Shown here: in pieces, positions 4,701 to 64,000 of the stretch | Position numbering within the stretch: the first letter of the stretch is position 1 | Layout: each line of letters opens with the position of its first letter | Origin: Candidatus Obscuribacterales bacterium | Lineage (GTDB): Bacteria; Cyanobacteriota; Vampirovibrionia; Obscuribacterales; Obscuribacteraceae | DNA: 64,000 nucleotides | Assembly (NCBI GenBank): GCA_038231015.1 | Contig: JBBRMD010000014.1 | Location: forward strand, 31,776 to 95,775 | Reading direction: 5' to 3' | Program-made: the position numbers and the translations under genes | Notes under the pieces: model-generated | Seen by the model: only the letters and a program-made list of their open reading frames with translations | Told to the model about the DNA's origin: nothing | Databases searched by the model: none

Positions 4701-4896
4701 ACTTTTGTCGCCAGTTTGGAAGAGCTAAAAGGGATCTTATTTTGTTTTATTAAAATGACTATTGTCAGACTGGCGGCTCTTTATCGGCTTTTAATGCAAA
4801 AGATATCTAGTCGCTCCCTTGTCAATGCGCTGAAACCCTAATACCATGCTGCTCTAGGTGTTTATCCTAAGTGGTTTATAGTCGTTCAAATTCAGA

Positions 4897-5835: not shown

Positions 5836-5866
5836 GACTTATCTAGCTAAGATTTATCTAGCTAGG
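5824..5866. repeat. three tandem 15-nt units (TTATCTAGCTAAGAC / TTATCTAGCTAAGAT / TTATCTAGCTAGG) carrying the stops of two convergent genes
   Basis: Read directly from the sequence. Unit 1 contains the TAA (5833-5835) of the TPR gene. Unit 3 contains the complement of the TAA (5854-5856) of the SpoIID gene. In the + frame there are three stops at 15-nt spacing (5833, 5848, 5863). Confidence 0.85.
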
Positions 5867-7239: not shown

Positions 7240-7268
7240 TACGCCGAGGATAATACGACGATGATACT

Positions 7269-8000: not shown

Positions 8001-8192
8001 TGTCCGGCAAATCTTAGATTAAGCAACGATTTAATCTTTCTTTTTATCGTATTTCTCCCACTTCATTGTGGCAAATGGCCCTTTCTGGTTTGCCGTTGCG
8101 TATTCTTCCCAGTGACATGTCCTGTGCCATTTCATAGACTAAGTCAGTAGGCAATGAACTGGCGTAACTTTCTTTGGCGGAACAGGTAACAA

Positions 8193-9350
8193 ATGAAATC
8201 ACATGCATTTCTAGTCGGCGTAAACGTTGCAGCTTCCATTCCTTTAGTGCTTGCACCTCAGGCGATGGCTAGTGACAACATGAGCGGAACAGCCAGTTTC
8301 CTCAAGGCCGCTGTTGGCGAAAAAGCCACTGCTCGCTCGCTTTCAGGTGATCTTCAATCAGCTCCAGTGCTCGCCTCGAAGCGTCTGCCAATCAGACGTA
8401 GTCTTACTCCAGTCAGTCTCTCTTCGCCACAATCTGTTAACGCCCGTTTGGCAATGTCACCTGTAGCAGGCGCTACTAAGCTAAGACCATTCGTGGCTGG
8501 CCGTAAATTGCCTAGCCGCAACCAACTGCAAACACAAATGCCTCAGCTCGACAACAGCGCCCAGCCTAGTTTGGCTGGCTCTATTAACGAGGCTACTTTT
8601 GCTCCGCAGACCAACAACTCTTATGACTCTGGCTACGGCAACACTGCCTACGCTCAGCCTACCCAAGCAGCACCTGCAGCTGCCAATCGCAGCCGCATGC
8701 GCCAGGCTGCCGATATCGTTGCCAGCTTCCAACGCAAGCACGCCGCTCGCTCGTTGCCTGGTCAATCACCAGCTACACCTGGTCAAGTTGGCTTTCCTTG
8801 TGCTCAACAAGCTGTCAATCCTAGTGAAGCCGAATGGACACAAATGGCTCGCACTGCCGGAAACAATGATAATGCTGAAATGGCAAGTTTGGCTCAAGAC
8901 TTCGCTGCTAGTCAAGCACACGGTCAAGGCGCTCCATCAGCTGGAACTGCAGGTCCTGCACCTTTCCCGCTAAGCTTGATTCCACAGTCTTCCCTCAAGC
9001 AGTTGATAGGCAGCACTGCCAAAGGTTCTCCTGCTGTCGCTAGTCACGGCGCTGGTCGCCAACAAGCAGCAATGACTCCGAGCTACTTTGGCTCATGGCG
9101 TCAAGGTCAGACTCCTGTGGCTCATGGCCGCGGTGGCAACTTGCAGCCTTCTGGTTTCCATACATATTTGGCTGCTGGTCAAGCAAGCAAGACCACGACT
9201 GCCAGTGCTTTCAAATCTTATTCTCCGATGACCTACAAAGCTACCCGCAGAGTTGCTCCTCAAATGAGCACAATGATCAAGAAAGTAGCTCCAGTAGCCG
9301 CTGCTCCTTATGTTGCTACTTATGGAACCTACCACTCACCTGCTCTATAG
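8193..9350 (+). CDS. exported A/P/Q/S-rich low-complexity hypothetical protein
   Basis: Signal-like N-terminus (FLVGVNVAASIPLVLAPQAMA). Long ORF followed by a hairpin terminator. No domain recognised. Confidence 0.5.
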   Translation: MKSHAFLVGVNVAASIPLVLAPQAMASDNMSGTASFLKAAVGEKATARSLSGDLQSAPVLASKRLPIRRSLTPVSLSSPQSVNARLAMSPVAGATKLRPFVAGRKLPSRNQLQTQMPQLDNSAQPSLAGSINEATFAPQTNNSYDSGYGNTAYAQPTQAAPAAANRSRMRQAADIVASFQRKHAARSLPGQSPATPGQVGFPCAQQAVNPSEAEWTQMARTAGNNDNAEMASLAQDFAASQAHGQGAPSAGTAGPAPFPLSLIPQSSLKQLIGSTAKGSPAVASHGAGRQQAAMTPSYFGSWRQGQTPVAHGRGGNLQPSGFHTYLAAGQASKTTTASAFKSYSPMTYKATRRVAPQMSTMIKKVAPVAAAPYVATYGTYHSPAL

Positions 9351-16346: not shown

Positions 16347-16420
16347 CGGGACGTAGCGCAGCTTGGTAGCGCGGTTGCTTTGGGAGCAATAGGTCGCAGG
16401 TTCAAATCCTGTCGTCCCGA
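16347..16420 (+). tRNA. tRNA-Pro (anticodon UGG)
   Basis: Hand-folded cloverleaf. The acceptor CGGGACG pairs with CGTCCCG, with discriminator A. The D stem is GCGC/GCGC. The anticodon stem is GTTGC/GCAAT with loop TTTGGGA (U33, UGG, G37). The T arm is GCAGG-TTCAAAT-CCTGT. Length is 74 nt and no CCA is encoded. Confidence 0.95.
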
Positions 16421-38719: not shown

Positions 38720-38725
38720 TATGCC

Positions 38726-40831: not shown

Positions 40832-40887
40832 TTGTAGTAACCGCTGCTTAGCTTAAGCATTATGCCCAGAAACGAGCAAAATTGGCC

Positions 40888-42972
40888 CTATTTCAGCAAG
40901 GCGGCATTGAGTTTCTGCTGACAGGCAGAGGTCCACATTCGGCTCTGAATCGCCACAGACTTTAGTGCTTTCATCTTTTTGAACGATTTAATGGCTCTCT
41001 CGTCGATAGCGCCATCGACCGAGGTAAATTGTATGAGTTTTGGTAGCTTACACAGCGCCTCAATGGCCTCGTTATTGGCGCCGGGACCGCCAATTTCTAA
41101 AATTTCCAGATTGGGCATGGTCGCCAGATAGCCGATGTCTTCTTTGGTTAGAGCACCGTCGCTCAAAGAGTTAACCTTGAACCAGAGCATTTTTTTGCTG
41201 CCAGCCATGGCTTTTAGAAGCGGGGTGATCTGGCGGCAAGATGTGAAATCAATATTGATCAACTGCTTCATGTAAGGAAGCTTTGCTACCTCCGTGCCAT
41301 TGGCGTTGGTGGCGCTCAAGTCGAGGTGGTTTAGATTAGTAAACTGTCCAAGAATTCTAATATCGCTATCTTTTAACTGGGTGCAATTGGCCAAGCTTAG
41401 GCTGTTTAACTTGTCTAAGTGCGACATGTTTTTGAGGGCGGCAGTGATGTCGCTCATTATTGGCTTTGGTGAGGGAATGAAGGCATCATTATCTGGTGCT
41501 TTACCATCGGCGATATAGCGCAGGGCAATGCCATAAAAATCGCCATTTTTGAAGGCCCTAAAGTTCTCAGGATGGGTCATCATTGTGCTGTACGATGTGA
41601 AGACTAATTTTGTCTCTATTGGAAATTCAAGACGGCCTGAAGCTCGCCAGTCTCCCCTTCCTTTCGATTCGCTGTGAATTAGGCCGAGGCTAACTTTGGG
41701 GAATTGAAAAACCTTTATAACTTCTTTTCCCTTGCGTACATAGCTGCACACTGGGCTAGTTATGACACTTTGAGCGACTTTATTAACATTAGGAAGTGTG
41801 GCATTGTCTGCCGAGCTCTTGCTTTCTACTTTGCTTGTGCTGAGGTCTTCTCGTCCTACAAAGAGTCTTGTCAGTGATGGCAGGTTGGTGCTTCCGCCGA
41901 TTGCTAGTACGGCGAGAGCAGCAACCAAGAGAGTGCCAACTGAAATTGCCACCACGATTACTGCTATGTTGCTTCGAAGTTGACCAGAATTGCCGTCTAC
42001 TTTTGAAGAGGTGAGGTCAGCACTGATTTCTTCAAGGTCTTCCACTACTGCTGCTAAGTTTTGATAGCGTTCGCGTGGTTTCTTCGCTAGCATTTTTGCT
42101 AGTACCATATCTAGTGCTTCCGGAAAATGCTGTGATTTGCTGGCTTTTTCAGCTAGAGTTGGTGCCGGTTCACCTTGATGCATCATCATTGTTTGCATGG
42201 CATTGCTGCCGCGAAATGGTGGTTGTCCAGTCAGAGTCTCAAACAGCGTACAACCGAGAGCGTAGACGTCTGAGCGAGCATCGCAACGCTCTGACAAGCA
42301 TTGTTCGGGACTCATGTAGAGCGGACTGCCGAAAATTTCGCCCATTGAAGTAATGTTTTGATTGTTGGGATCGGCTGTGCCTGCTAGTTTAGCAATGCCG
42401 AAGTCGACTACCTTTACTTTGGCACCAGTCGAATCTGCTGATTTCAGCAGTATGATATTTCCTGGTTTGATGTCGCGATGAATGATCCCTTTTTTGTGTG
42501 CATAGTTAAGTCCGAGCGCGACTTCTGTAAAAATTTCCAATGTTTCTTTTAGCGGAAGCGAGCCGCGCGAGGCAAGCTTTTGCGCCAAGCTCGTGCCCTT
42601 TAACAGGTCCATTACGTAGAAAGGACGCCCGTTTTCGATACCAAAATTGTGGATGCCGACAATGTTAGGGTGATTCATGCGGGCAATGGCCTGAGCTTCA
42701 ATCTGCATGCGGCGCCAAACTGTTTCTGTTAATTGCTCTGCTCTAATTGTTTTAACAGCATAGACTTTATGGAGAATTTGGTGGCGTGCTTCGTAAACAT
42801 AGCCCATGCCACCAACACCAATAAGGCGAATAACCTCGTAGTCGCCAATCAAATCACCAGGGCTCAACTCATAATTGTCTAATGCGGCAAAATTGAGCTC
42901 ATTGCTTTCACTCAGCCTTGTTTTGGCATCGTCATCAGCGTAATCTTGGTCGCTAGTGTCTGAGTTTTTCAC
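40888..42972 (-). CDS. receptor-like Ser/Thr protein kinase with C-terminal LRR ectodomain (paralog 2)
   Basis: Kinase motifs as above. TM is IAVIVVAISVGTLLVAALAVLAIG. FQFPKVSLG module followed by LRRs. Confidence 0.9.
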   Translation of the reverse strand: MKNSDTSDQDYADDDAKTRLSESNELNFAALDNYELSPGDLIGDYEVIRLIGVGGMGYVYEARHQILHKVYAVKTIRAEQLTETVWRRMQIEAQAIARMNHPNIVGIHNFGIENGRPFYVMDLLKGTSLAQKLASRGSLPLKETLEIFTEVALGLNYAHKKGIIHRDIKPGNIILLKSADSTGAKVKVVDFGIAKLAGTADPNNQNITSMGEIFGSPLYMSPEQCLSERCDARSDVYALGCTLFETLTGQPPFRGSNAMQTMMMHQGEPAPTLAEKASKSQHFPEALDMVLAKMLAKKPRERYQNLAAVVEDLEEISADLTSSKVDGNSGQLRSNIAVIVVAISVGTLLVAALAVLAIGGSTNLPSLTRLFVGREDLSTSKVESKSSADNATLPNVNKVAQSVITSPVCSYVRKGKEVIKVFQFPKVSLGLIHSESKGRGDWRASGRLEFPIETKLVFTSYSTMMTHPENFRAFKNGDFYGIALRYIADGKAPDNDAFIPSPKPIMSDITAALKNMSHLDKLNSLSLANCTQLKDSDIRILGQFTNLNHLDLSATNANGTEVAKLPYMKQLINIDFTSCRQITPLLKAMAGSKKMLWFKVNSLSDGALTKEDIGYLATMPNLEILEIGGPGANNEAIEALCKLPKLIQFTSVDGAIDERAIKSFKKMKALKSVAIQSRMWTSACQQKLNAALLK

Positions 42973-42995
42973 AGCTGCCTATGATAGCGCCCCAG

Positions 42996-45281
42996 TTACT
43001 CGTCTAAGACAACCGTATTGATTCTGGGAAACTGTTTCTTCAGCAATTCTTGGCAGCGTAGGTTCCAGGTAGCACATTCAAAATCAGCGCATTCAAGGCC
43101 CTTTATTTTGGCGAGAGACTTGAGGGAGGCTTCACTTATTTTATTTGAATGAGCGTAAAGCATTTTCAGATGTGGCAAGGTGGCCAGTATCGCTATGCTT
43201 TCATCGTCAAGATTGCAATCGTCTAAGTCAAGCCTGATCAGGTTCTTACAGCTAGCAATCAGCTTTACGTCATCTAAACTAAGAAGGTGACCGCGAGGGC
43301 GGTCAAGGCCTAGATTGACTAGTTTTTTTGAACCAGCTATGGCTTTGAGAAGAGTACTCACCTTAACACCCTCGCTGTAAGTTAACGAAGTAAGCTCTTT
43401 CAATCGGGCTAGTTTACTCAAGCCCCTGCCAGTAATGCTGGTGTCACTGGCGCGCAGCACTATCAAGTTGGGCAACTTATTCATCGGAGCAATGCATCTG
43501 TCATTTGCATTGGGGCAATCTGTTAAGTCTAGCTTTTTCAATCCACTCATATGCTGAATGTTTTTGAGTGCTAAGACCACATCGCTTTCATAGCTGTCAG
43601 GGAGGAGAAACTCACTGTTATTGTCATTGCTGCCTGCCTTCTGTGCCGGCATCGCCCGTTGAAAAAGGTGTATGCCATAAAGGTCGTCGGCCTTGAAGCG
43701 AGTAAAGTAGTGCACTTGGTCCATTAGCTGTGGTGAGGCCATTAATTCGAGTTTGGCGTTTACTGGATATTGTTTGGAGCCTTTAATTTGCCAATATTCT
43801 GTGCTGCCGTTGACAAAAATGCGACCCAAATAGTTATCAGATGGGAAGTCAAATTGTTTGACTGGTTTGCCCTCTTTATCTACAGTAAGATGACTAAAAG
43901 GTTTTTCCTCTTCTGGGCTTTTCTCTAGTGCCGGGGCCACAGTTGACTCGGCTTTTTCTTGAATCGGAACTTCAGCCTTAGTATCACTGGTGGTGCTGGC
44001 CGGTTTGCTCACTGCAGCCGCGTTTGACAGTAATACAGCTGGTTGTAATACGGCTGATTGTGATGCTGCTGGTACTGATAGGGCGCTGGCATTTTGCTTG
44101 TGATTTGTCTGGAAGAACCAAATGCCGGCAGCGACTAAAACAAGAACTGCTGCGGCAGTCGCTATAGCGATACCTATAGCAAAATTTTGAGCTGGTGATT
44201 TTTCTTCTGGTTCTTCTGGTGCAAAGAAGGTATGAGTATCAAACAATGCTTTAGTTTGAATTTCTCTGCCCGCAGCTAGCGATTGCAAATCTTCGGCTAC
44301 TCTTTCTAAACTTTGATAGCGGTCCATCGGGGCTTTTGCTAACAATTGATAGACCAATTCTTCAATTTCATCTGGAAAATCTTTGCCAGAGGCTGCACTC
44401 ATAGTTGGCGGTTCATGACTTTGATGCATGACCATGGTTTGTACTGGGTTGTTACCCCTGAAGGGCGGAAGGCCCACCAAAGATTCAAAGAGCGTGCAGC
44501 CTACCGAGTAGATGTCAGAGCGAGCGTCGATGCGCTTGCCCTCACATTGTTCGGGGCTCATATAATATGGGCTGCCAAAAACTTCGCCAACGCAGGTGAG
44601 GTTCTGGTTATCTGGATCGCTAGCTCCAGATAGCTTAGCAATGCCAAAATCTACGATTTTAACAGTGGCACCAGAGCTGTCAGGCTCTTTCAACAAGATG
44701 ATATTGCCTGGTTTAATGTCGCGGTGGATGATCCCTTTTTTGTGCGCATAGGCTAGCCCGCGGCAAACCTCGATAAAAATTGGTAGAGCTTGGGTCAGTG
44801 TGAGGCTGCCTCTTTTAAGGCGATCAGCCAAAGATTCTCCGTCAAGAAGGTCCATCACATAGTAGGGCAGGCGGTCTTCGTGTAGCCCCAAATTTTGAAT
44901 GCCGATAATGTTAGGGTGATTCATGCGAGCAATTGCTTGGGCTTCTACTTGCAAGCGCCGCCAGGCTATTTCGCTAACATGCTGAGAGCTGAGAGTCTTC
45001 ATGGCATATTGCTTCTGCAGAATGCGGTGGCGCACACGATAAACGTAGCCCATGCCGCCCACGCCTATGAGCGAGATAATTTCATAATTTTCGCCCACCA
45101 GGTCGAGAGCATGAAGTTTGCCGTCGTTCGGCCGCTCCGGCACGATAGTGACGTTAGCGTCTGCCATTCCCAAAAGTGAGCTATTGGTTAATCTTGTGCT
45201 GTCTTGGCAGTCAAGACTCAGATTAGGCCCTGGGTCTGTGTTAATGCCAGAATAGCTCTGGGATTGATCGTTTGGGTTCAT
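42996..45281 (-). CDS. receptor-like Ser/Thr protein kinase with C-terminal LRR ectodomain (paralog 1)
   Basis: Kinase motifs as above. TM is FAIGIAIATAAAVLVLVAAGIWFF. A long A/S/P linker, an FDFPSDNYLG module, then LRRs. Confidence 0.9.
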   Translation of the reverse strand: MNPNDQSQSYSGINTDPGPNLSLDCQDSTRLTNSSLLGMADANVTIVPERPNDGKLHALDLVGENYEIISLIGVGGMGYVYRVRHRILQKQYAMKTLSSQHVSEIAWRRLQVEAQAIARMNHPNIIGIQNLGLHEDRLPYYVMDLLDGESLADRLKRGSLTLTQALPIFIEVCRGLAYAHKKGIIHRDIKPGNIILLKEPDSSGATVKIVDFGIAKLSGASDPDNQNLTCVGEVFGSPYYMSPEQCEGKRIDARSDIYSVGCTLFESLVGLPPFRGNNPVQTMVMHQSHEPPTMSAASGKDFPDEIEELVYQLLAKAPMDRYQSLERVAEDLQSLAAGREIQTKALFDTHTFFAPEEPEEKSPAQNFAIGIAIATAAAVLVLVAAGIWFFQTNHKQNASALSVPAASQSAVLQPAVLLSNAAAVSKPASTTSDTKAEVPIQEKAESTVAPALEKSPEEEKPFSHLTVDKEGKPVKQFDFPSDNYLGRIFVNGSTEYWQIKGSKQYPVNAKLELMASPQLMDQVHYFTRFKADDLYGIHLFQRAMPAQKAGSNDNNSEFLLPDSYESDVVLALKNIQHMSGLKKLDLTDCPNANDRCIAPMNKLPNLIVLRASDTSITGRGLSKLARLKELTSLTYSEGVKVSTLLKAIAGSKKLVNLGLDRPRGHLLSLDDVKLIASCKNLIRLDLDDCNLDDESIAILATLPHLKMLYAHSNKISEASLKSLAKIKGLECADFECATWNLRCQELLKKQFPRINTVVLDE

Positions 45282-51557: not shown

Positions 51558-53042
51558 GTGGCCCCGTTTGAGATCAGTCCCAAGTATACTTGTGAAATGA
51601 ATTGGTCGCGAATTCCAATATTTAGTATTTCAATAATGGCTGTAGTAGTTTTTCTTCTGTTGCCTTTTTTGACCATGGAATTTCTAAATATCAAATTGAA
51701 GCACAATCATGTTGTACCTAGCGCAGAAGCTGGAGACTTGGTTATTGTCGAATCAGGTCTGCCATCTCGGCCTCAGCAATCTGCCGCCGAATTGAAAGCG
51801 CGATTTTTAGAACAGAAACTTATTGACAGGTCTAATCAAAAGATTCTACTAGAAGAGAATGCCCAGAGGCTCAAGCAGATATTGAAAGAAAGTGAGACCT
51901 CTTTTGTAGAAATCAAACAGCGAAAGTCGGTTGATCCGATTTCGTTTATTAAAGAGGCCTCAGAGCGTGGCAGCATGTATTTACAGATAGGTGATAAGCA
52001 GACGGCCTATCATTTATACAAAGAGGCCGTACAATCTTTGAGAGGCACTGGGTCTGCCATTGACACAGCACAGTTTGAAGATCCATTGTGGCAATTTCTT
52101 TTGGAGTATCTTAAGACTGTTGAATCGAAAGAGGCAGAAAGAGATGCTATCGACCGTTTACTGAATGCTTCAGATAGAAAACAATCGATTCCTTATATTG
52201 GCGGTTCATTTCGAATTGCAGACTATTTTAAAACTGTCGGTCGCCAACAAGAGGCTGTAGACTTCTTAATTAGGATAGTTGGATTGGTGCTTAAAAACCG
52301 CCCGGAAGACGTGGATTCATTAACGGCTACTAGCATAGAGCTTGAATGTATAAGTGTAGGACTGAAACAGCAGGGGCAGCTGGAAAAAGTAGATCGTGAA
52401 ATTTTGGCGGCAACAGAAAAGTATCATCCTAATCAGGGTGCTTCTGTCATTGATCCGCTGGCGCGTTTGAGTGCATTCTGCATCAAGAACAACCAGCAAA
52501 AAGAAGGTGATCTCTTGGCTGAAAAAGCCTTGATACTTGCCAAAGAAGATACGGTCACGTGCCTTTTAGATAAATTGGCAGTAATTGCAGACTCTTACAC
52601 AGGTTCAGGCAAATTAGATAAGGCCGAGCACCTTCTGAGAGAAGCCGCCGAAATAAAATCTAAGCACTTCAAGACTGTCGAGCTGAGCTATTTAAACAAT
52701 TCATATCGTGAGTTGAAGGCCAAGTTTGAAGAGCGCGGTCAATGGACTTCTGCAGAATCACTGTTAGAGCAATTCAAGCTTGCGCAAGTACCAGGTAAGT
52801 ACGGCGAGATGTGCGTGTTGCAGGATCTCTTTTTTGGTAATTTGGACGAAGCTGGCCGCCTTCAAAGCCTTGTTAAAGGCACCGAAGCACAAAATTCTCT
52901 GAAGAAGGCTGATGACGCCTACCTTAAGGTCAAAGAGTATTTCGCAAAGGAGCAGCAGGCGTCTGCCGTGCAAGACTGGTTTAAGACGCGACAAAATCGC
53001 CTAAAGACACTCGGATTGAACGACAATCTTAACGGTCAATAA
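51558..53042 (+). CDS. membrane-anchored helical-repeat (TPR-like) hypothetical protein
   Basis: TM (IPIFSISIMAVVVFLLLPFL), then helical repeats. The start may be GTG 51558 or ATG 51598. Confidence 0.5.
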   Translation: MAPFEISPKYTCEMNWSRIPIFSISIMAVVVFLLLPFLTMEFLNIKLKHNHVVPSAEAGDLVIVESGLPSRPQQSAAELKARFLEQKLIDRSNQKILLEENAQRLKQILKESETSFVEIKQRKSVDPISFIKEASERGSMYLQIGDKQTAYHLYKEAVQSLRGTGSAIDTAQFEDPLWQFLLEYLKTVESKEAERDAIDRLLNASDRKQSIPYIGGSFRIADYFKTVGRQQEAVDFLIRIVGLVLKNRPEDVDSLTATSIELECISVGLKQQGQLEKVDREILAATEKYHPNQGASVIDPLARLSAFCIKNNQQKEGDLLAEKALILAKEDTVTCLLDKLAVIADSYTGSGKLDKAEHLLREAAEIKSKHFKTVELSYLNNSYRELKAKFEERGQWTSAESLLEQFKLAQVPGKYGEMCVLQDLFFGNLDEAGRLQSLVKGTEAQNSLKKADDAYLKVKEYFAKEQQASAVQDWFKTRQNRLKTLGLNDNLNGQ

Positions 53043-53159
53043 GTGAATCATATTATTCAGTAATCTTATCGACTGTCTCTGCGTCAATTGGAGGCCACTA
53101 TCATGTATCTTTGCCAAAGCCCTCGGCTTGGTTAAATGTAACCAAAACAAGAATTACTG

Positions 53160-53188
53160 TTGACATAGTCTGAGCTGACCTGTAATGT
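53160..53188 (+). promoter_or_regulatory. sigma70-like promoter for the argC leader (TTGACA, 17 nt, TAATGT)
   Basis: A perfect -35 hexamer at 53160-53165, a 17-nt spacer, and a -10 hexamer TAATGT at 53183-53188. It lies 118 nt downstream of the previous gene stop. Confidence 0.55.
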
Positions 53189-53218
53189 CGGTAATAGCTA
53201 AAAGGTGCTCCAACCAAC

Positions 53219-53290
53219 ATGACCTTGTTCAATATCAGCTCTAACAGCCGACGCCGCGAATTCTTTGAGAACTCGGGGCAGATAACGTAG
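53219..53290 (+). CDS. candidate arginine leader peptide (23 aa, MTLFNISSNSRRREFFENSGQIT)
   Basis: ATG preceded by AAGGTG. Three consecutive Arg codons CGA-CGC-CGC at 53249-53257. The stop at 53288-53290 lies 3 nt past the 5' strand of the antiterminator. Confidence 0.55.
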   Translation: MTLFNISSNSRRREFFENSGQIT

Positions 53291-53332
53291 CTGATTTTTA
53301 GCACTATTATCGTAATTGTCTCCCCGGGTTTT
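53268..53332 (+). promoter_or_regulatory. candidate antiterminator helix competing with the argC-leader terminator
   Basis: AGAACTCGGGGCAGATAA (53268-53285) pairs with TTGTCTCCCCGGGTTTT (53316-53332). By hand this gives 13 Watson-Crick pairs, 3 G-U pairs and 1 bulged C. It fully sequesters the terminator 5' arm (53321-53328). Confidence 0.5.
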
Positions 53333-53352
53333 ATTACCCGGGGATTTTTTTT
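53321..53352 (+). terminator. intrinsic terminator 12 nt upstream of the argC ATG (attenuator terminator)
   Basis: TCCCCGGG (53321-28) pairs with CCCGGGGA (53337-44), a perfect 8 bp with an 8-nt loop, followed by T8 (53345-53352). Confidence 0.75.
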
Positions 53353-53364
53353 AGGGAAATTATC

Positions 53365-54498
53365 ATGGCAGCGCAAATTGAACAATTGAAGGCAGGGGCA
53401 AGTTCTAGCAATAAAGAGGCAAAGACTTCCGAAAAGATTGCAATAAAGAAAGTAGCTGTGGTCGGCGCTACTGGCTACACCGGGCAAGAGTTGGTGCGTC
53501 TATTGCTGCAGCATGACATGGCCGAGATACACTCAGCGGTATCTCAGAGCAGCGACGGAAAGAAATTCGCTTCAGTTTATCCAGGTCTGCAAAAGCACAC
53601 CGATCTTGTTTGCACGAGCGAAGATTTAGAGTCGCTCGCAGAGCAAGTCGATTTACTGTTTCTCGCTTTGCCTCACGGTAATGCTGCCGGTAAAGTGACT
53701 AAGAGCATTCTGGCAAAGTGTAAGGTGATCGATTTAGGTGCTGATTTTCGCTTGAAGTCAGCGGCCGACTATGAAACCTGGTACAAATTCAAGCACCCGC
53801 AGCCAGAACTGCTCAACCAAGCCGTCTACGGCTTACCTGAGCTCAATCGTAAGGCTATAAGCCAGGCTAGCCTTGTTGCTAATCCGGGATGTTATGCCAC
53901 TTGCTCGATACTGACGTTGGCACCACTTTTAGAGGCCGGCATAATAGATCCGACTACTATTATCATAGACGCTAAGTCAGGTATCTCAGGTGCCGGAAGG
54001 GCCGCAAACTTAGGAACGCATTTTAATGAATGTAATGAGTCTATAAAAGCCTACGGGGTGGCCTGCCACAGGCATACTCCAGAGATAGAAGAACAGCTTG
54101 CCGCTTTCAGTAAAACTTCTTTTTGTACATCGTTTACACCGCATTTGGTGCCAATGAATCGTGGCATTCTTGTCACTGCTTACGCATCGCTTATAAGTAA
54201 TATATCAAAACAAGAGCTATATAATTTATATAGTAAATTCTATGAAAATGAGCCATTCATCAGGCTTTTCTCTCCTGACGACGACGGATATACAATGCCT
54301 GAAACACGCTTTGTCAAAGGAGCAAACTTCTGCGATATCGGTATGGCAGTTGATGAGAGAAGCAATCGTGTGATTGCCATCGGTGCTTTAGATAACCTGG
54401 TGAAAGGCGCAGCCGGACAAGCTATACAAAACATGAATCTCCTCTTCGGTTGGCCTGAAACTAGCGGCTTAAAACAATCAGCAATTTTTCCGGCTTGA
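53365..54498 (+). CDS. argC: N-acetyl-gamma-glutamyl-phosphate reductase
   Basis: KVAVVGATGYTGQELVRLL Rossmann start and the active-site region ANPGCYATC. It has an approximately 28-aa N-terminal extension relative to the usual start of this family. SD AGGGA lies upstream. Confidence 0.9.
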   Translation: MAAQIEQLKAGASSSNKEAKTSEKIAIKKVAVVGATGYTGQELVRLLLQHDMAEIHSAVSQSSDGKKFASVYPGLQKHTDLVCTSEDLESLAEQVDLLFLALPHGNAAGKVTKSILAKCKVIDLGADFRLKSAADYETWYKFKHPQPELLNQAVYGLPELNRKAISQASLVANPGCYATCSILTLAPLLEAGIIDPTTIIIDAKSGISGAGRAANLGTHFNECNESIKAYGVACHRHTPEIEEQLAAFSKTSFCTSFTPHLVPMNRGILVTAYASLISNISKQELYNLYSKFYENEPFIRLFSPDDDGYTMPETRFVKGANFCDIGMAVDERSNRVIAIGALDNLVKGAAGQAIQNMNLLFGWPETSGLKQSAIFPA

Positions 54499-54515
54499 TA
54501 TTTTTTCAAAATTTG

Positions 54516-54544
54516 TTGACATTGGTGCGAAACGATCGTAACCT
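54516..54544 (+). promoter_or_regulatory. sigma70-like promoter for the argJ leader (TTGACA, 17 nt, TAACCT)
   Basis: A perfect -35 at 54516-54521, a 17-nt spacer, and a TAnnnT-type -10 at 54539-54544. It lies 18 nt after the argC stop. Confidence 0.45.
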
Positions 54545-54571
54545 TTCCCAAAGTTAGTGAGGCAATTTTCA

Positions 54572-54697
54572 ATGTTCGGTTCCAGCAACAATAACCATGT
54601 AAGTATCCACGTAAGCAGCTCTGTAAGCGGCCCGGTAAGTAACCGAAGTGACTTGCGACGCCGCCTAGCGCGCTCGGGCTTTATTTGGTTGTGTTGA
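54572..54697 (+). CDS. candidate arginine leader peptide 2 (41 aa, ...SNRSDLRRRLARSGFIWLC)
   Basis: ATG preceded by GTGAGG. It carries the same CGA-CGC-CGC triplet run (54656-54664) plus two further Arg codons nearby. It is followed by a terminator. Confidence 0.45.
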   Translation: MFGSSNNNHVSIHVSSSVSGPVSNRSDLRRRLARSGFIWLC

Positions 54698-54719
54698 TTT
54701 GATCAACAACTAAATTTTT

Positions 54720-54758
54720 ATCCCTGAGTGCAAGGCAAGCATTCAGGGATTTTTTTTT
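54720..54758 (+). terminator. intrinsic terminator between argC and argJ (attenuator terminator and/or argC terminator)
   Basis: ATCCCTGA (54720-27) pairs with TCAGGGAT (54743-50), a perfect 8 bp, extendable by GTGC/GCAT. It is followed by T8 (54751-54758), a run of nine T counting the last stem base. Confidence 0.75.
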
Positions 54759-54802
54759 GCACGTTTTTGCCCATTGATACAGAATAATCGGGAGACACCA
54801 AG

Positions 54803-56170
54803 TTGAATTCAATAGCCAGATACCAATCGAATCGCAATGTCGCGGGTACACCAGTTACAGCGACTCCAGCAGCTAATGCCACTACAGCCTTAGCTGCAGA
54901 GAGCCAGGGTCTGAAAGCGAACGCAAGCGCGGTCATTGCTACGGTAGAAGTAGTTGGTTGCACCGGCGGTGTCACCAGCCCCAAAGGCTTTATGGCTGCT
55001 GGCGCTCACATTGGCGTCAAACGCAAGCGCAAAGATCTCTCATTGATCTGGAGTGATGTGCCAGCTCACCTGGCAGCTGCTTTTACTACAAATGTCATGA
55101 GAGCGGCACCGATTCTGTGGAATGAAAAGGTGGTGGCCACCGGTAAGCCTGTACGTGGAATCGTCATCAACAGCGGTAATGCTAATGCCTGCACTGGCGA
55201 GCTTGGCATTATAAATGCCGAAGCCATGGCCGCGACTTATGCCGAGAGCATGGGCGTTAGTAAAGAGGAAGTGATCATCGCTTCTACTGGAGTGATTGGC
55301 GTGCAACTGCCAATCCAGCTGATCAAGCAAGGCATCGTGAGCACCTGCCATGATTTGGCTGCGTCGCTAGAAGCAGGACTAAGTGCAGCTCAGGCGATCA
55401 TGACCACTGATACCTATGTCAAGCAAGCTTCAATAGTATTCGAAGTAGGCAGTAAGAAAGTCACCATCGGTGCCATGGCCAAGGGCAGCGGCATGATTCA
55501 TCCAAATATGGCTACCATGCTCAGTTTCCTTACAACTGATCTAAATATTTCTCCGGCACTTCTCAACAAGGCCCTGAAAGAAAGTACAGCCGAAACATAC
55601 AATATGATTAGTGTTGACGGTGATACCAGTACCAATGACATGGTCGCTATTCTAGCCAACGGCAAGGCTGGAAACACCCTTATCGACAGCGAAGACAAAG
55701 ATTATTTCGCCTTCTGTCAGGCACTCAAGGCCATTAATACAGACCTGGCGAAAGCAATTGTGCGAGACGGAGAAGGTGCCACTAAATTTCTAGAAGTGCA
55801 AGTCAAGCAGGCAGGCAGTATCGAAGAGGCACGCAAACTGGGCCGTTCTATTGTTTCTTCTAGCTTGGTCAAAACAGCCTTCTTTGGTGAAGACGCCAAC
55901 TGGGGCCGGATCATTTGCGCCATGGGCTATAGCGGCGTTACGTTCAAACCAGAAACTGTCTCAATTGCCATAGAAAGTTCGGCTGGCAGACTTGAACTGA
56001 TGCACGACGGTGAGCCGGCTGTCGTCAACGAGATTCTTGCCAAAGCTGTTTTGGCAGAGAAAGACATCACGATCCACATCAACATGAAAGAAGGCTTGAG
56101 TGAGGCAACCGCCTGGGGCTGCGACCTCAGCTATGAGTATGTGCGCATCAATGGCTCTTACAGAACGTAG
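54803..56170 (+). CDS. argJ: bifunctional glutamate N-acetyltransferase / amino-acid acetyltransferase (ornithine acetyltransferase)
   Basis: GGVTSPKGFMAAGAHIG and the autoprocessing-site context HPNMATMLSFLTTD. TTG start with GGGAGA 8 nt upstream. There is no other in-frame start before the conserved core, so the approximately 45-aa T/A-rich extension appears real. Confidence 0.9.
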   Translation: MNSIARYQSNRNVAGTPVTATPAANATTALAAESQGLKANASAVIATVEVVGCTGGVTSPKGFMAAGAHIGVKRKRKDLSLIWSDVPAHLAAAFTTNVMRAAPILWNEKVVATGKPVRGIVINSGNANACTGELGIINAEAMAATYAESMGVSKEEVIIASTGVIGVQLPIQLIKQGIVSTCHDLAASLEAGLSAAQAIMTTDTYVKQASIVFEVGSKKVTIGAMAKGSGMIHPNMATMLSFLTTDLNISPALLNKALKESTAETYNMISVDGDTSTNDMVAILANGKAGNTLIDSEDKDYFAFCQALKAINTDLAKAIVRDGEGATKFLEVQVKQAGSIEEARKLGRSIVSSSLVKTAFFGEDANWGRIICAMGYSGVTFKPETVSIAIESSAGRLELMHDGEPAVVNEILAKAVLAEKDITIHINMKEGLSEATAWGCDLSYEYVRINGSYRT

Positions 56171-56191
56171 GTTTTAGAAAAAAATATAGAT

Positions 56192-57091
56192 ATGAGTATA
56201 GATATGAAAACGTTAGCTCCAATCAATTTACAATCAATTCCGGTGGCGTCTTTTGATCTTTGCACGGCGAAAGAAACGCTTAAACAGATGGCCTATGAAG
56301 TGGTCGTGGTGAAATTTGGCGGCAAGGCCATTGGCAATGAATGTGTGCTAGATGCTCTTATTGATGAAGCCGTTTTGCTGATCAAGGCTGGCATAAATGT
56401 CATTGTCGTCCATGGCGGTGGCACGGCAGTCAATGATGCTTTGGCGTCTATCGGTAAAGAGACGAAAAAGATAGACGGACTACGAATAACTGATGATGAG
56501 ACTCTCTCAATTGCAGTGAAAGTATTCAGTGAGATAAACAACATGCTCACTGAAAAATTTCGGCAAAGAGGTGTGAGCGCCCTAAGCTTTTGCTCGCAGT
56601 CGGCTATACCTTTTCAGACTGAAAAAATGTCGGCAGAGCTTGGCTGGGTCGGTGACATAGTTGAAGTTCGCTCTAAAAGTATTGACAGCTGGATGTGGGC
56701 GGGCTGGACGCCTATAGTCTCACCGCTCGGCATTGACAGTAGTGGCCAGTTTTACAACATCAACGCCGATCATGCCGCCCTCGCTCTGGCGACTAGTCTG
56801 GAGGCCGATGGCCTGATTTTCATGACTGACGTACCTGGTGTGCTCAAAGACTTCAATGTGCCACAGTCAAGGATAGGACATGTTACAGCTTCTAGCGCCC
56901 AAGAGCTGATTGAGGATGGTACCGTCAGTGGCGGCATGTTGCCTAAGATCAAAAGTTGCGTCAGAGCCATCAAGAGCGGCATTAGACGCATCGCCATAAT
57001 TAATAGCTTTGCACCGAATGCTCTTGTCAGAGGCTTGTTAGCGCCGCAAGAGACAGGCACACTTATAACTGGAGATAGATATGACCACTAG
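56192..57091 (+). CDS. argB: acetylglutamate kinase
   Basis: VVVKFGGKA, VVHGGG, GLRITD, NINADHAA: the amino-acid kinase family in ArgB order. Confidence 0.85.
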   Translation: MSIDMKTLAPINLQSIPVASFDLCTAKETLKQMAYEVVVVKFGGKAIGNECVLDALIDEAVLLIKAGINVIVVHGGGTAVNDALASIGKETKKIDGLRITDDETLSIAVKVFSEINNMLTEKFRQRGVSALSFCSQSAIPFQTEKMSAELGWVGDIVEVRSKSIDSWMWAGWTPIVSPLGIDSSGQFYNINADHAALALATSLEADGLIFMTDVPGVLKDFNVPQSRIGHVTASSAQELIEDGTVSGGMLPKIKSCVRAIKSGIRRIAIINSFAPNALVRGLLAPQETGTLITGDRYDH

Positions 57092-58367
57092 TGCATGCAA
57101 CGAATCTGTTTCGTCAATTTTAAGTTCAAGCTCAACTTCAAGCTCAACTTCAGGTTCAAGTTCAAGTTTAAGTTTAAGTTCAAAGCAAAACCACTGGGTT
57201 GAGCGCGGCAAGAAAGTGTTGATGCAAACTTACGCCACCCAGCCCATGGTTCTCACGGAGGGCCAGGGAAGCTATATTGAAGATGTCGACGGTAGGCGTT
57301 ATCTCGATTTTGCCTCGGGCATCGCTGTCAGTTCGCTTGGTCACTGTCACCCGGCCTATGTTGAAGCTTTGACTAAGCAGCTAAGTAAACTAAGCCACTG
57401 CTCCAATCTCTATTACAACCAGCCGGCCATTGAGCTAGCCGAGAAGCTTGTGGTCGATAGTGCTTTTGACCGGGCCTTCTTTTGCAACAGCGGTGCTGAG
57501 GCTGTGGAGGGCGCTCTTAAACTCAGTCGCAAGTACGCCAAGAAGCACAAAGGCGAACACTGCACGACAATTCTCAGCATGAGTAATTCATTTCATGGTC
57601 GCACCTATGGTGCGCTGTCAGCTACGGCTCAAACCAAGTATCATGAAGGTTTCCATCCGCTAGTACCCGATATTGCTGTGGTGGAGTTCAACAATATTGC
57701 ATCGATTTTGGCGCATGATTTGGCTACTGTTGCTGCCATAATCGTCGAGCCGGTGCAGGGCGAAGGTGGAGTGCATTTAGCCGATGGCAGTTTTCTCAGA
57801 GAAGTGAGAGCGCTTTGTGACGAGCACAAGATTGTTTTGATATTTGACGAAATACAGTGTGGTGTCGGTCGCAGTGGCAGCTTTTTTGCCAGTGATAATT
57901 TTGTCGCTCCAGACGTCGTAGCGCTAGCTAAGGGTCTCGGTGGCGGCTTCCCCATCGGCGCTATTCTGGCAAAAGAAAGCATAGCTAGTGCTTTCAATCC
58001 GGGAGATCATGGTTCGACTTTTGGTGGCAATCCGCTGGCCGCATCGGCAGCTTTGGCATGCGTCAATGTTATTCGCGATCAACAGTTTCTAGCATCAGTT
58101 AAAAAGCACAGTGAAATCTTGGTTGGCGCTTTAAGTGTTCTCAAGGCTAATTATTCATCTATAAAAGCAATTCGTGGACTGGGTCTGATGCTGGGTATTG
58201 AGTTTGATATTCCTGTTAAACCAGTTATTCAGAAATGCGCAGCAGAAGGGCTTTTGTTAGTTGGTGCCGGAGAAAATGTCATAAGGCTTCTACCGCCGTT
58301 GACAGTAAGCTATGATGAGATCACTGAGGCAATTGACATATTGGCGATTGTTCTCGCGTCGCAGTAG
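57081..58367 (+). CDS. argD: acetylornithine aminotransferase (class III PLP aminotransferase)
   Basis: YLDFASGIAVSSLGHCHP, FFCNSGAEAVEGALK, DEIQCGVGRSGSFFA, and ALAKGLGGGFP (PLP Lys). ATG 57081 has GGAGA upstream and overlaps the argB end. It has a Ser-rich N-terminal extension. Confidence 0.9.
   Translation: MTTSACNESVSSILSSSSTSSSTSGSSSSLSLSSKQNHWVERGKKVLMQTYATQPMVLTEGQGSYIEDVDGRRYLDFASGIAVSSLGHCHPAYVEALTKQLSKLSHCSNLYYNQPAIELAEKLVVDSAFDRAFFCNSGAEAVEGALKLSRKYAKKHKGEHCTTILSMSNSFHGRTYGALSATAQTKYHEGFHPLVPDIAVVEFNNIASILAHDLATVAAIIVEPVQGEGGVHLADGSFLREVRALCDEHKIVLIFDEIQCGVGRSGSFFASDNFVAPDVVALAKGLGGGFPIGAILAKESIASAFNPGDHGSTFGGNPLAASAALACVNVIRDQQFLASVKKHSEILVGALSVLKANYSSIKAIRGLGLMLGIEFDIPVKPVIQKCAAEGLLLVGAGENVIRLLPPLTVSYDEITEAIDILAIVLASQ
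57105..57182 (+). repeat. coding Ser-codon microsatellite (TCAAGCTCAACT x2, TCAAGT/TTAAGT units) at the argD 5' end
   Basis: The DNA reads ...agttcaagctcaacttcaagctcaacttcaggttcaagttcaagtttaagtttaagttca. It translates to SVSSILSSSSTSSSTSGSSSSLSLSS. Confidence 0.75.
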
Positions 58368-58396: not shown

Positions 58397-58885
58397 ATGA
58401 TTTCCGCCCGTTTGCTTGGAGTTTTTGTCAACTTATTGATTGCTATGACTCCAACTTTGCTGGCGCCTCCTAGAGTCAGCGCTCACTCACCCCTGCACTC
58501 GCTGATTGCTGACTATGTTCCTTGGGGTGTAGATGAAGACGAGCTTATAGGATTGACCAAGGCCGAGATTGCCAATAAATTCAAAGATACATTGGGCTTT
58601 GACCAAGTAGAATCTAGAGTTTTTTTCGTCGACTATAATCGTCCAGGCTTCGGCCGCCCAGGTTTTGTTGTCACCTTCGCCGACGGCAAAATAGTAGCAA
58701 TCAAACGTCTTTTCATCGACGGTGGTGGTTGCAGAATTGTCGGACCCATTTTCAAAACCAAGAAAGATGCCTTGAACTTCGTCATTGGGAGTTTGTCAAA
58801 GCAAGCCGAGCGCAGCCCTAAAGACGAAGGTCGATTGAAAGACGCCCGCAAGCGATTGGCCAACTTAGATAGCACCGCCAAGTAG
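58397..58885 (+). CDS. exported hypothetical protein (162 aa)
   Basis: Signal peptide (LLGVFVNLLIAMTPTLLAPPRVSA) and AAGGAGCA upstream. No domain recognised. Confidence 0.45.
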   Translation: MISARLLGVFVNLLIAMTPTLLAPPRVSAHSPLHSLIADYVPWGVDEDELIGLTKAEIANKFKDTLGFDQVESRVFFVDYNRPGFGRPGFVVTFADGKIVAIKRLFIDGGGCRIVGPIFKTKKDALNFVIGSLSKQAERSPKDEGRLKDARKRLANLDSTAK

Positions 58886-63063: not shown

Positions 63064-64000
63064 TTAGGCTCTTGGGTGAGTGTTCATATAGACCCGTCTC
63101 AAGCGGTCCAAACTTACATGGGTGTAAATTTGGGTGGTGTTGATAGTGGTGTGACCTAATAGATCTTGTACTACACGCAAATCGGCTCCACCTTCGAGTA
63201 GGTGAGTCGCAAACGTATGTCTCAAGGTGTGAGGGGTGATTGGTTTGTTGATACCAGCCTTGAGGGCATACTTCATGACGATACGGTGGACAGATCTTGA
63301 CGACAGGCGAGTTGCTTGGCGGCTAACAAAGAGAGGATGTTCGGCTTGTGGTGTGCGACCTTCAGCCAACTTAGTCCAGGTTTCGCTGAGATATTTCTTC
63401 AGCCAGTTGTGAGCGCTTTGATTGAGCAATACAACTCTTTCTTTGCCGCCCTTACCGAGAACCCGCATTTCCATGCCTTCTTGGTTATAGTCTTGCACTC
63501 TGAGGCCGCATAGTTCGCTGACGCGCATGCCGGTAGCGTAAAGAACTTCCATTAAGGCACGGTCACGAGCACCTAATACAGAGTTGGTATCAGGTGACAT
63601 AAGTAAGCGCACGATTTCTTCTTTATCTAAACAGGCGGGCAGTCTACGAGTGAGTTTAGGCCCACGTACTTGCTTTGATGGATCTTCGTCGATCAGTTGC
63701 TCTCTTCTCAAGTAGCGATAGAAAGATCTGATTGCTGAGATTTTACGAGCAACAGTTGGTCTTGAATATTGTTCTTGAATTTGTCTGATGTAAGCGCGCA
63801 GACCTTCAGCTTCTAACCAACCAGAAGTTGAGCCAGAAGCAGTTGCAGAGCTAGTTCCAGAAACAGTCCCAGAACTATTTGTTGAAGCTGATGCAGTTTG
63901 CTCTGTTAAAGGAGCGGTTGGCATCGAGCCACTACCGGTAGTTGTGTTAACTGTTGATTCAACTGACGTATGTCCGTTGTAAGAATTCTGTTGGGCAACA
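63064..64000 (-). CDS. XerC/XerD-type tyrosine recombinase, N-terminus beyond window edge; S/T/G-rich insertion in the N-terminal domain
   Basis: C-terminal catalytic blocks ATGMRVSEL, HTLRHTFATHLL, LLGHTTINTTQIYTHV. The frame stays open from the ATG at 63924 to nt 64000 (...VAQQNSYNGHTSVESTVNTTTGSGS-MPTAPL...), and only the last helix of the core-binding domain is present after 63924. The true start is therefore probably upstream of the window. Confidence 0.85.
   Translation of the reverse strand, partial: VAQQNSYNGHTSVESTVNTTTGSGSMPTAPLTEQTASASTNSSGTVSGTSSATASGSTSGWLEAEGLRAYIRQIQEQYSRPTVARKISAIRSFYRYLRREQLIDEDPSKQVRGPKLTRRLPACLDKEEIVRLLMSPDTNSVLGARDRALMEVLYATGMRVSELCGLRVQDYNQEGMEMRVLGKGGKERVVLLNQSAHNWLKKYLSETWTKLAEGRTPQAEHPLFVSRQATRLSSRSVHRIVMKYALKAGINKPITPHTLRHTFATHLLEGGADLRVVQDLLGHTTINTTQIYTHVSLDRLRRVYMNTHPRA

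Follow-up and report, generated by a model that had tools for sequence, protein, structure and literature searches.

The DNA analysed here, referred to as the window, is a stretch of 64,000 nucleotides from a genome of the Obscuribacterales (Melainabacteria) that contains an argC-argJ-argB-argD operon. Melainabacteria are the non-photosynthetic sister group of cyanobacteria, and the closest relatives of the ArgC protein encoded in the window come from Obscuribacterales and other Melainabacteria. According to annotation with Pfam and NCBIfam (45 of the 47 open reading frames (ORFs) of at least 150 amino acids), there are no arg genes in the window besides these four. Two paralogous leader units are associated with the operon. 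Unit 1 resides directly upstream of argC, while unit 2 (54516-54758) occupies the 304-nt gap between argC and argJ. Each consists of a promoter, a short leader ORF with a cluster of arginine codons and an intrinsic terminator whose 5' arm can alternatively pair with a segment inside the leader ORF. It is likely that both units are ribosome-mediated leader-peptide transcription attenuators which sense charged tRNA-Arg. Such a switch had been proposed for the region upstream of argC in an earlier note made by reading the sequence. Comparative evidence supports this interpretation and every check that can be run on a computer turned out favourable, but the set of units described there was incomplete as the second Arg-leader unit, between argC and argJ, had been overlooked.

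Architecture of the two leader units

Unit 1 was re-derived part by part (Table 1). The 23-codon leader ORF, preceded by a Shine-Dalgarno-like motif and equipped with the codons CGA-CGC-CGC, is present exactly where the earlier note had placed it. The sequence AGGTG ahead of its start codon is kept in most copies of unit 1. The long helix that had been paired by hand, 53268-53285 with 53316-53332, was recovered with 13 Watson-Crick pairs, three G-U pairs and one bulge; in the version calculated with RNAfold, 16 pairs connect 53268-53284 with 53317-53332. Competition between antiterminator and terminator for shared bases was also borne out, with segment 3 overlapping the 5' arm of the terminator, and the ATG of argC at 53365 indeed sits 12 nt past the T tract. 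Two descriptions needed adjustment. The promoter had been called near-consensus, which is correct for the -35 hexamer TTGACA, whereas the -10 hexamer TAATGT agrees with TATAAT at just three of six positions (T1, A2, T6); this is why P1 was not listed by a consensus scanner. The terminator hairpin has the position and the run of eight T residues originally noted, while its stem comprises nine rather than eight base pairs. The small hairpin within the antiterminator, which starts at the last base of the leader stop codon, carries G-U, G-C or A-U as its fourth pair among relatives. Directly upstream of P1, the block AAATGTAACCAAAACAAGAATTACTG is conserved in eleven closely related loci (L001-L011), and the DNA beyond it varies between these genomes. 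The block may be an UP element, an operator or the binding site of a regulator.

The pairing of segments 2 and 3 in unit 1 is considerably more stable than that of randomized sequences. The duplex reaches -19.6 kcal/mol compared with -9.2 kcal/mol for dinucleotide shuffles (z -4.6), and one of 200 shuffles was equally good. Unit 1 is more than a chance arrangement.

Unit 2 repeats this design with its own promoter and a longer leader of 41 codons. The arginine codons of leader 2 are located at 54644, at 54656-54664, where the triplet CGA CGC CGC is the same as in unit 1, and at 54671. The Arg run CGACGCCGC is common to both leaders of the window. The genes that unit 2 would control are argJ, argB and argD (54803..58367). 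A scan of both strands of the 64-kb window, looking for short ORFs that contain an Arg cluster and have a hairpin and T run behind them, returned unit 1 and a second match at 54557/54572-54697, the leader of unit 2, and nothing else.

Table 1 Coordinates of the arg genes, of the parts of both leader units and of the predicted RNA folds in the window
Feature	Coordinates	Strand	Remarks
Conserved block AAATGTAACCAAAACAAGAATTACTG, directly 5' of the P1 -35 hexamer	53134..53159	+	kept in L001-L011
Promoter P1: TTGACA 53160-53165, 17-nt spacer, TAATGT 53183-53188	53160..53188	+	sequence reading
Shine-Dalgarno-like AAGGTG of leader ORF 1, 11 nt ahead of ATG	53202..53207	+	
Leader ORF 1, 23 codons, MTLFNISSNSRRREFFENSGQIT; ATG 53219, TAG 53288-53290	53219..53290	+	
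Regulatory Arg codons CGA CGC CGC of leader 1	53249..53257	+	
Segment 1 (anti-antiterminator strand), covers second and third Arg codons; partner 53268-53279	53253..53264	+	minimum free energy (MFE) fold
Segment 2, core CUCGGGG 53272-53278; alternative partners segment 1 or segment 3	53268..53284	+	
Small hairpin from last base of TAG stop across out-of-frame TGA of GUAGCUGA, inside antiterminator	53290..53302	+	
Segment 3, antiterminator 3' strand, overlaps terminator 5' arm	53317..53332	+	
Intrinsic terminator 1: 9-bp stem 53321-53329/53336-53344, 7 G-C pairs, 6-nt loop, T8 53345-53352	53321..53352	+	
argC (N-acetyl-gamma-glutamyl-phosphate reductase)	53365..54498	+	TIGR01850, E = 2.3e-134
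Internal promoter P2: TTGACA 54516-54521, 17-nt spacer, TAACCT 54539-54544	54516..54544	+	kept in relatives
Leader ORF 2, 41 codons, MFGSSNNNHVSIHVSSSVSGPVSNRSDLRRRLARSGFIWLC; GAGG 54559-54562	54572..54697	+	
Segment 2 of unit 2 (GCGCUCGGG); partner 54723-54731	54670..54678	+	duplex -15.5 kcal/mol, z -2.8
Inner hairpin of antiterminator 2, spans leader-2 stop 54695-54697	54683..54715	+	
Intrinsic terminator 2: 12-bp stem 54720-54731/54739-54750, T8 54751-54758	54720..54758	+	
argJ	54803-56170	+	TIGR00120, 6e-146
argB	56192-57091	+	TIGR00761, 5e-61
argD	57081-58367	+	TIGR00707, 3e-149
1:2 hairpin	53253-53264 with 53268-53279 (unit 1)		unit 1 -12.8, unit 2 -12.9 kcal/mol
Antiterminator stem-loop (2:3)	unit 1 53268-53332, unit 2 54670-54731		-24.5 and -24.9 kcal/mol
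Terminator (3:4)	53321-53344 (unit 1)		unit 1 -19.3, unit 2 -19.7 kcal/mol

Conservation and coding of the units among relatives

Related loci were collected by a scan of one genome per species, which yielded 42 loci, and were supplemented with metagenome loci and genome contigs. Together they provided 40 non-redundant instances of related units, comprising both types. Units 1 and 2 occur in all eleven loci with the most similar ArgC proteins (L001-L011, 79-89% identity), in metagenome loci with 68-74% ArgC identity (L048-L051, the sequence of L050 ending within unit 2) and in genome contigs with 62-67% identity (L068, L069, L072 and L073). One locus, L053 (ArgC 64% identical), features unit 2 alone. 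The earlier note had asked whether a mini-ORF with consecutive Arg codons and a terminator is conserved in relatives, with covariation in both helices. The first part was confirmed: a mini-ORF with two to four consecutive Arg codons, a complementary segment and a terminator are present in all loci with ArgC 66-89% identical. With regard to covariation, unit 2 gave a positive result, whereas unit 1 is so highly conserved that the evidence is weak. The promoter pattern TTGACA, 17-18 nt, TAnnnT is kept in 35 of the 40 related units.

In L075-L077, the operon reads argF-argG-argH-argC-[unit 2]-argJ-argB-argD, and here the homologue of unit 1, e.g., MYSVSNLNASLNRRSREFFVNSGPVWHS, precedes argF. The element thus tracks the start of the arginine operon and not argC itself. 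A relaxed motif scan of 78 sources, covering 1.05 Mb when both strands are counted, returned 61 matches, and all 61 lie directly upstream of argC, argF or argJ in sense orientation. The units are exclusively associated with arg genes. They end 12-50 nt ahead of the arg gene start, and there is no second promoter in between.

These data bear on two alternative explanations. The first is that unit 1 arose by chance or combines an ordinary terminator of the upstream gene with an unrelated promoter. Terminator-like sites and promoter-like hexamers are in fact common locally, with 11 terminator-like sites in 5 kb where 4.5 are expected. The comparative data refute this explanation, to which we assign a negligible probability. 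The unit is kept even though the genes further upstream differ between genomes, from which it follows, in agreement with the earlier note, that unit 1 is not the terminator of the upstream gene. Furthermore, it precedes argF where argF opens the operon, it is duplicated inside the operon, and the motif scan of 1.05 Mb gave no match elsewhere.

According to the second alternative, the units would primarily be genes for trans-acting small RNAs or small proteins, and their proximity to arg genes would reflect co-regulation. Since each unit has its own promoter and terminator, a discrete RNA of ~157 nt or ~210 nt would be formed, and there is a precedent in Sinorhizobium, where the terminated attenuator RNA rnTrpL and the leader peptide peTrpL act in trans (PMC7968998). 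Even so, this explanation is very improbable, as the units always stand in sense orientation directly before an arg gene with no second promoter between and as the segment complementary to the terminator 5' arm has no role in a simple small RNA gene. A role in trans would supplement attenuation in cis, not replace it.

More distant relatives realize the same design with other sequences. In Obscuribacterales loci with ArgC proteins of 53-56% identity (L017/L057 and L018), the units have different stem sequences, and complementarity between segment 2 (GGACUCGGGGC) and segment 3 (GCCCCGAGUCC) is perfect in L018. Two further versions originate from genomes of low GC content, namely L054/L055 with 31% GC, the ArgC of which is 87.6% identical to a Gastranaerophilales protein, and L074 with 38% GC. 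Their units are located upstream of argC, have unrelated A+U-rich stems and leaders reading MNNISLQNQILNNRRNRYV... and MKKINEKLNNRRTRNILKRRLFPV, and each contains a segment complementary to its own terminator 5' arm. Despite the unrelated stems, these low-GC units still hold RRNR or RRTR. Across all instances analysed (n = 30), the free energy of the duplex between segments 2 and 3 ranged from -11.8 to -24.8 kcal/mol, with z scores from -2.1 to -5.3 (200 dinucleotide shuffles each). In L017 (4069-4110) and L057 (3066-3108), the leader ATG is found just 9 nt past the -10 hexamer, and the mRNA for this leader peptide would be leaderless or nearly so.

The leader ORFs bear the signs of translated sequences. 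They are intact in 35 of 35 non-redundant copies, have a length of 23-41 codons, always possess a start codon and in most copies also a Shine-Dalgarno-like motif. The homologues of leader 2 consist of 27-41 codons and always remain in frame from a conserved ATG to a conserved UGUUGA; where unit-2 copies share start context and terminal UGUUGA, they differ in length by whole codons. Arginine accounts for 17.5% of the codons in the 35 leaders but for 4.76% in the genes of the window. CGN codons make up 161 of the 174 leader Arg codons, and CGA contributes 36% as opposed to 9% in window genes. CGA is read via I:A (inosine) wobble and is slow in other organisms. Its use in the leaders may sharpen sensitivity to charged tRNA-Arg. 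Most relatives have three to four consecutive Arg codons, which vary synonymously between CGA, CGC and CGT; L068 has two.

Downstream of the Arg run, a different kind of constraint becomes apparent. In L049, L076 and L068, the stretch following the run is read in another frame (VPYELGAGLV, DFFELGAGMA and KLIPLGAGLA, respectively), while the nucleotides and the position of the stop codon are kept. The conserved sequence GUAGCUGA / GTAGCTGA carries stop codons in two frames, and both are used among relatives. As the frame shifts while the nucleotides are retained, it is the RNA and not the peptide that is constrained 3' of the Arg run, which argues against an arrest-peptide sensor. In such a mechanism, resembling the fungal arginine attenuator peptide (AAP) or TnaC/SpeFL, the nascent leader peptide and free arginine together would stall the ribosome at or near the stop codon, and the stalled ribosome would block the antiterminator and cause termination. 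High arginine would then lead to termination just as in an attenuator, the stop codon of unit 1 indeed lies just past segment 2, and the C-terminal sequences ...NSGP... or ...RSGFIWLC are kept in many copies. Nevertheless, we consider an arrest peptide highly unlikely. Not only do the three loci mentioned change frame, but the C-termini in unit 1, unit 2, L017, L018, L054 and L074 are unrelated as peptides, and what all copies share is the cluster of Arg codons. The parts of the units, their conservation, their competing pairings and their exclusive association with arg genes were demonstrated by computation.

The collected loci and the window yielded some further observations. In L008, the sequence directly past the unit-2 terminator (4369-4487) departs from that of all relatives and gives a match, truncated by the contig end, to group-II-D1D4-3 (E = 0.022, below gathering score). 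A group II intron may have inserted behind the terminator in this case; insertion behind terminators is a known habit of class C introns. A contig from a metagenome-assembled genome titled 'Flavobacterium psychrophilum' (L041, CALRJJ020000009.1) contains the 3' portion of an argC gene of the Obscuribacterales type (87% identity) together with a typical unit 2 and is probably mis-binned. Between argF and argC of L015 (2595-2728), a 22-nt repeat (GCTCGAACCAGATCCCGGGAGC) is present in 6.1 copies, and related GGGAGCGC...GGCTTCCAGCC palindromes were seen by eye in intergenic regions of L012 and L018. These may constitute a family of repeats in Obscuribacterales similar to repetitive extragenic palindromic (REP) elements. 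In the window, argD is followed after 30 nt by an ORF for 162 amino acids (58397-58885, + strand) with a hydrophobic N-terminus and no Pfam match; in L076, this position is occupied by a gene for an ACT-domain protein. Four tandem paralogues of ~700 amino acids, each with a Ser/Thr protein kinase domain and leucine-rich repeats, are encoded at 36560-45281 on the minus strand. A tRNA-Pro(TGG) gene (16347-16420, + strand) and a gene for a tyrosine recombinase/integrase near the window end (63064-63924, - strand) are unconnected with the arg leader units.

Competing RNA folds and the proposed switch

Comparison of the free energies of the alternative conformers, as the earlier note had recommended, gave a favourable result. 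In both units, the combination of the 1:2 hairpin with the 3:4 terminator is more stable than the 2:3 antiterminator, which in turn is more stable than the terminator alone. In the folding model, this order is the hierarchy required by an attenuator of the trp type. The 1:2 hairpin of unit 1 takes in two of the three Arg codons, and a leader RNA ending ahead of the 3' arm of the terminator adopts the antiterminator fold. The geometry of unit 1 also matches. A gap of 11-12 nt separates the last Arg codon from segment 2, and another 2 nt lie between segment 2 and the stop codon, such that a ribosome stalled at the Arg codons leaves segment 2 free while a ribosome at the stop codon covers its core. 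In unit 2, the RRR run ends 4 nt ahead of segment 2 and the stop codon follows 15 nt past it. A ribosome at this stop codon sits between segments 2 and 3 and blocks their pairing equally.

Covariation was evaluated separately for both units. In an alignment of unit 1 with 12 relatives, the proportion of paired cells amounted to 89% for the 1:2 hairpin, 99% for the antiterminator formed by segment 2 and 100% for the terminator. The helices are invariant and the covariation test is therefore uninformative for this unit. Unit 2 is more variable. Among ten copies aligned with MAFFT, the terminator was paired in 98.3% of cells with one exchange of U-A to C-G, and the antiterminator in 100% compared with 32-55% for slid controls. 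In a second alignment, of 13 sequences, the antiterminator was paired in 92.3%, and one of its positions changes from C-G to U-A or G-C; the covariation score of 0.231 compared with 0.164 was reached by none of 500 shuffles. For the terminator, the corresponding values were 93.1% paired, with U-A/C-G in 6/7 sequences and again none of 500 shuffles. In this larger alignment, the segment-3 base shared by both helices (C or U) co-varies with both of its partners, just as expected of a strand that takes part in two mutually exclusive helices. With regard to the sequence features of a classical attenuator, leader ORF, Arg cluster, terminator and antiterminator are all present. The 1:2 helix is predicted in both window units and is without covariation support, as no compensatory change occurs in it.

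We infer that the leaders are translated, that ribosomes stall at the Arg codons, that transcription is coupled to translation and that read-through depends on arginine. In unit 1, transcription would start ~7 nt past the -10 hexamer and result in a leader RNA of ~157 nt. A ribosome would load on the leader ORF while RNA polymerase is still located in the leader. When arginine is plentiful, the ribosome would reach the stop codon and cover segment 2, whose core is situated 10-16 nt ahead of this codon; segment 3 would then pair with segment 4, the terminator would form and transcription would end at the U tract. On a leader without a ribosome, pairing of segments 1 and 2 would likewise allow the terminator to form. 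When charged tRNA-Arg is scarce, the ribosome would stall with an Arg codon in its A site, so that segment 1 is covered and segment 2 is free. Segment 2 could then pair with the emerging segment 3, sequestering the 5' arm of the terminator, and RNA polymerase would read through into the arg genes. In unit 2, the relevant stalls would be those at the first Arg codons of the cluster. P1, leader 1 and attenuator 1 would thereby control the start of the operon at argC, whereas P2, leader 2 and attenuator 2 would control argJBD. The mechanism as such is classical; novelty lies in the amino acid that is sensed, in the lineage and in the placement of two units in tandem.

Several points weigh against this interpretation. 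In equilibrium calculations, the complete leader adopts the terminator fold whichever stretch is masked as ribosome, with terminator pair probabilities above 0.94. We do not propose a thermodynamic switch, as masking the stretch covered by a ribosome on the Arg codons did not make the antiterminator the MFE structure; the terminator won every time. Consequently, the switch must be kinetic, with the antiterminator forming first and persisting. A ribosome halted at the third Arg codon of the unit-2 run would lie over segment 2. Unit 2 fits for stalls at earlier Arg codons only, i.e., at Arg 54644, at the first codon of the RRR run or at an extra RR pair present in relatives, and its fit is weaker than that of unit 1. 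None of the unit-1 helices shows a compensatory change in the 12 relatives, the 13-sequence alignment of unit 2 was anchored on the three segments and is thus biased towards the structure, and covariation within each family is sparse. Moreover, some leaders contain few Arg codons, in particular those of L068 with just RR in unit 1 and three Arg codons in unit 2, and Ser (16.8%) and Asn (9.4%) are likewise enriched in the leaders. Finally, the organisms are uncultured and known from metagenome assemblies only.

The composition of the leaders leads to another explanation, namely that the attenuator reports general translation capacity or overall starvation for amino acids, with any slowing of ribosomes as the signal, and that the Arg codons are kept mainly as the G+C-rich strand of the 1:2 helix. 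Owing to the overlap between segment 1 and the Arg codons, CGNCGN could be conserved for pairing of the RNA alone, and both the enrichment of Ser and Asn and the leaders with just two or three Arg codons would be accounted for. We regard this as improbable. The Arg codons vary synonymously between CGA, CGC, CGT and CGG while the amino acid stays constant; they also occur outside segment 1, e.g., in RRNSRRR and R-P-L-RR-SS-RRR-L-RR; the low-GC units retain RRNR or RRTR on unrelated stems; and the units are found at arginine biosynthesis genes only. Sensing of charged tRNA-Arg by a leader peptide is the interpretation that we prefer.

A further possibility is a switch controlled by a protein or ligand, such as a riboswitch, a T-box or a TRAP/PyrR-like system, in which the ORF would be incidental. 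The region between segments 2 and 3 is indeed strongly conserved and structured, and arginine genes of Firmicutes can be controlled by T-boxes (PMC1262725). Rfam searches, another check named in the earlier note, showed that no family matches the units. At gathering score, nine related loci gave no match, including T-box, riboswitches and His/Leu/Thr/Trp_leader. When positions 52000-55000 of the window were searched at E <= 10, only look-alikes of terminator hairpins far below gathering scores were returned; Spot_42, Plastid-rpl20 and other matches were rejected because they cover the terminator hairpin only and are far below threshold. In addition to the lack of any convincing match at E < 10, the ORF is intact in 35 of 35 copies with indels of whole codons and a start codon always in place, and the Arg-codon cluster is the sole feature common to versions unrelated in sequence. 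We therefore deem a protein- or ligand-controlled switch extremely unlikely and adhere to leader-peptide attenuation.

Relation to ArgR and to known attenuation systems

Arginine biosynthesis is the textbook case of control by a repressor (the ArgR regulon), while attenuation is the textbook mechanism for Trp, His, Leu, Thr, Ile/Val and Phe. The attenuators proposed here share their target genes with ArgR/AhrC and presumably also the output, repression by arginine, but ArgR/AhrC is a DNA-binding protein that acts at promoters. Among Obscuribacterales, argR heads or adjoins the arg cluster in L013/14/56 and L078, and there the intergenic gaps are 19-90 nt and do not contain a unit. L078 carries the tight cluster argR-argG-argH-argF-argC-argJ-argB (1093-8541), and the argR region of L013 extends from 2303 to 2773. 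The region upstream of a further argR locus (L079, 10001-10453) is without an Arg-leader ORF. From this distribution, the order Obscuribacterales seems to use ArgR control in some members and attenuation in others. A+T-rich palindromes containing TGCATA were noticed upstream of argR in relatives L013, L078 and L079 and may be ARG boxes.

At P1 or P2, a search with the E. coli ARG-box consensus and up to three mismatches gave no match. Palindromes of a guessed TGCATA type were also absent at P1 and P2; this is a weak test, for the pattern also failed to recover the sites seen by eye upstream of argR. The near-perfect palindrome TGAATCATATTATTCA (TGAAT-N6-ATTCA) lies at 53044-53059, 2 nt past the stop codon of the preceding ORF, with ~100 nt between it and the P1 -35 hexamer further downstream. 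It resembles an ARG box but has a spacer of 6 nt instead of 4, is not conserved in relatives and has matches in the window at chance level. When ArgR was searched with tblastn in the sequences of the window and of all collected loci, only L013/14/56 were positive. Among the best 120 ArgR homologues listed, none is on a contig equal in length to the leader-bearing contigs of 2.44, 1.06 and 0.85 Mb, which is suggestive only; in length, their contigs agree with contigs that encode other ArgF homologues, L078 being one of these. In a large part of the Melainabacteria, Arg-codon attenuators at the start of the operon and inside it may have taken the place of the ArgR repressor of sister lineages, a proposal to which we give about even chances. 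It would extend, with the same balance of probability, to many Obscuribacterales and to the low-GC relatives, one of which is nearest to Gastranaerophilales.

The earlier note was not aware of any characterised Arg-codon attenuator. In line with this, no bacterial example of the terminator/antiterminator type was found in Rfam 15 or in the searchable literature. The accessible literature lists attenuators for His, Thr, Phe, Trp, Leu, Ile/Val and Cys along with others, but not for arginine. In a comparative study, T-boxes were the sole control at the RNA level named for arginine genes (PMC1262725), and a survey from 2016 stated that reliable evidence for attenuation in cyanobacteria is lacking (PMC4833913).

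The closest model is trpL of E. coli and Salmonella, which likewise has its own promoter, a short translated leader with tandem codons for the amino acid of the pathway, four segments forming 1:2, 2:3 and 3:4 helices and an intrinsic terminator just ahead of the first structural gene. The energy hierarchy and the need for kinetic, co-transcriptional control are also shared. In contrast to trpL, the arg units use Arg codons (CGA/CGC/CGU) instead of Trp codons, show no sequence similarity and belong to the Melainabacteria lineage. The arg operon moreover contains another complete unit, equipped with a promoter of its own, at an internal position, and the arg antiterminator is an extended composite stem-loop around a hairpin that spans the stop codon. 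The leaders of his, leu, thr, ilv and phe operons resemble the arg units in their runs of regulatory codons and in the competition of terminator and antiterminator. They sense other amino acids and their Rfam models miss the arg units. Whereas hisL contains seven His codons, the arg leaders have three to four consecutive Arg codons and up to ten Arg in 34 codons.

In three other systems, arginine acts through a small ORF; among bacterial leader ORFs that sense arginine, those of speF and rbfL come nearest to the arg units. In the fungal AAP system (the upstream ORF of arg-2/CPA1), a conserved peptide stalls the ribosome on free arginine and affects eukaryotic translation and mRNA decay. As in the proposed attenuators, the upstream ORF lowers expression of an enzyme of the arginine pathway at high arginine; unlike them, it contains neither a run of Arg codons nor a terminator, and the peptide of the arg leaders is not conserved across frames. 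Control by the speF leader involves Rho. In this Salmonella leader, Arg codons of orf34 make downstream expression arginine-dependent (PMC6386406), as do those of the rbfL leader ORF in Staphylococcus aureus (PMC13009471). The speF leader (orf34/speFL), however, belongs to a polyamine gene and works through mRNA conformations without competition of terminator and antiterminator, while rbfL relies on the rare codons AGA/AGG and masks the ribosome-binding site of a biofilm regulator. Arginine biosynthesis is not a target of either.

If the interpretation is correct, the units described here would be the first arginine-specific classical attenuators and would extend classical attenuation to a further amino acid. 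Being compact (~190-240 bp) and self-contained, they could be used in a heterologous host and as arginine-responsive parts. They would also be the first case of classical attenuation within the Cyanobacteriota/Melainabacteria group and a natural example in which two attenuators in tandem adjust separate parts of a single operon. For the biology of these organisms, it would follow that transcription and translation are coupled closely enough in uncultured Melainabacteria to permit attenuation and that ArgR control and attenuation alternate within one bacterial order.

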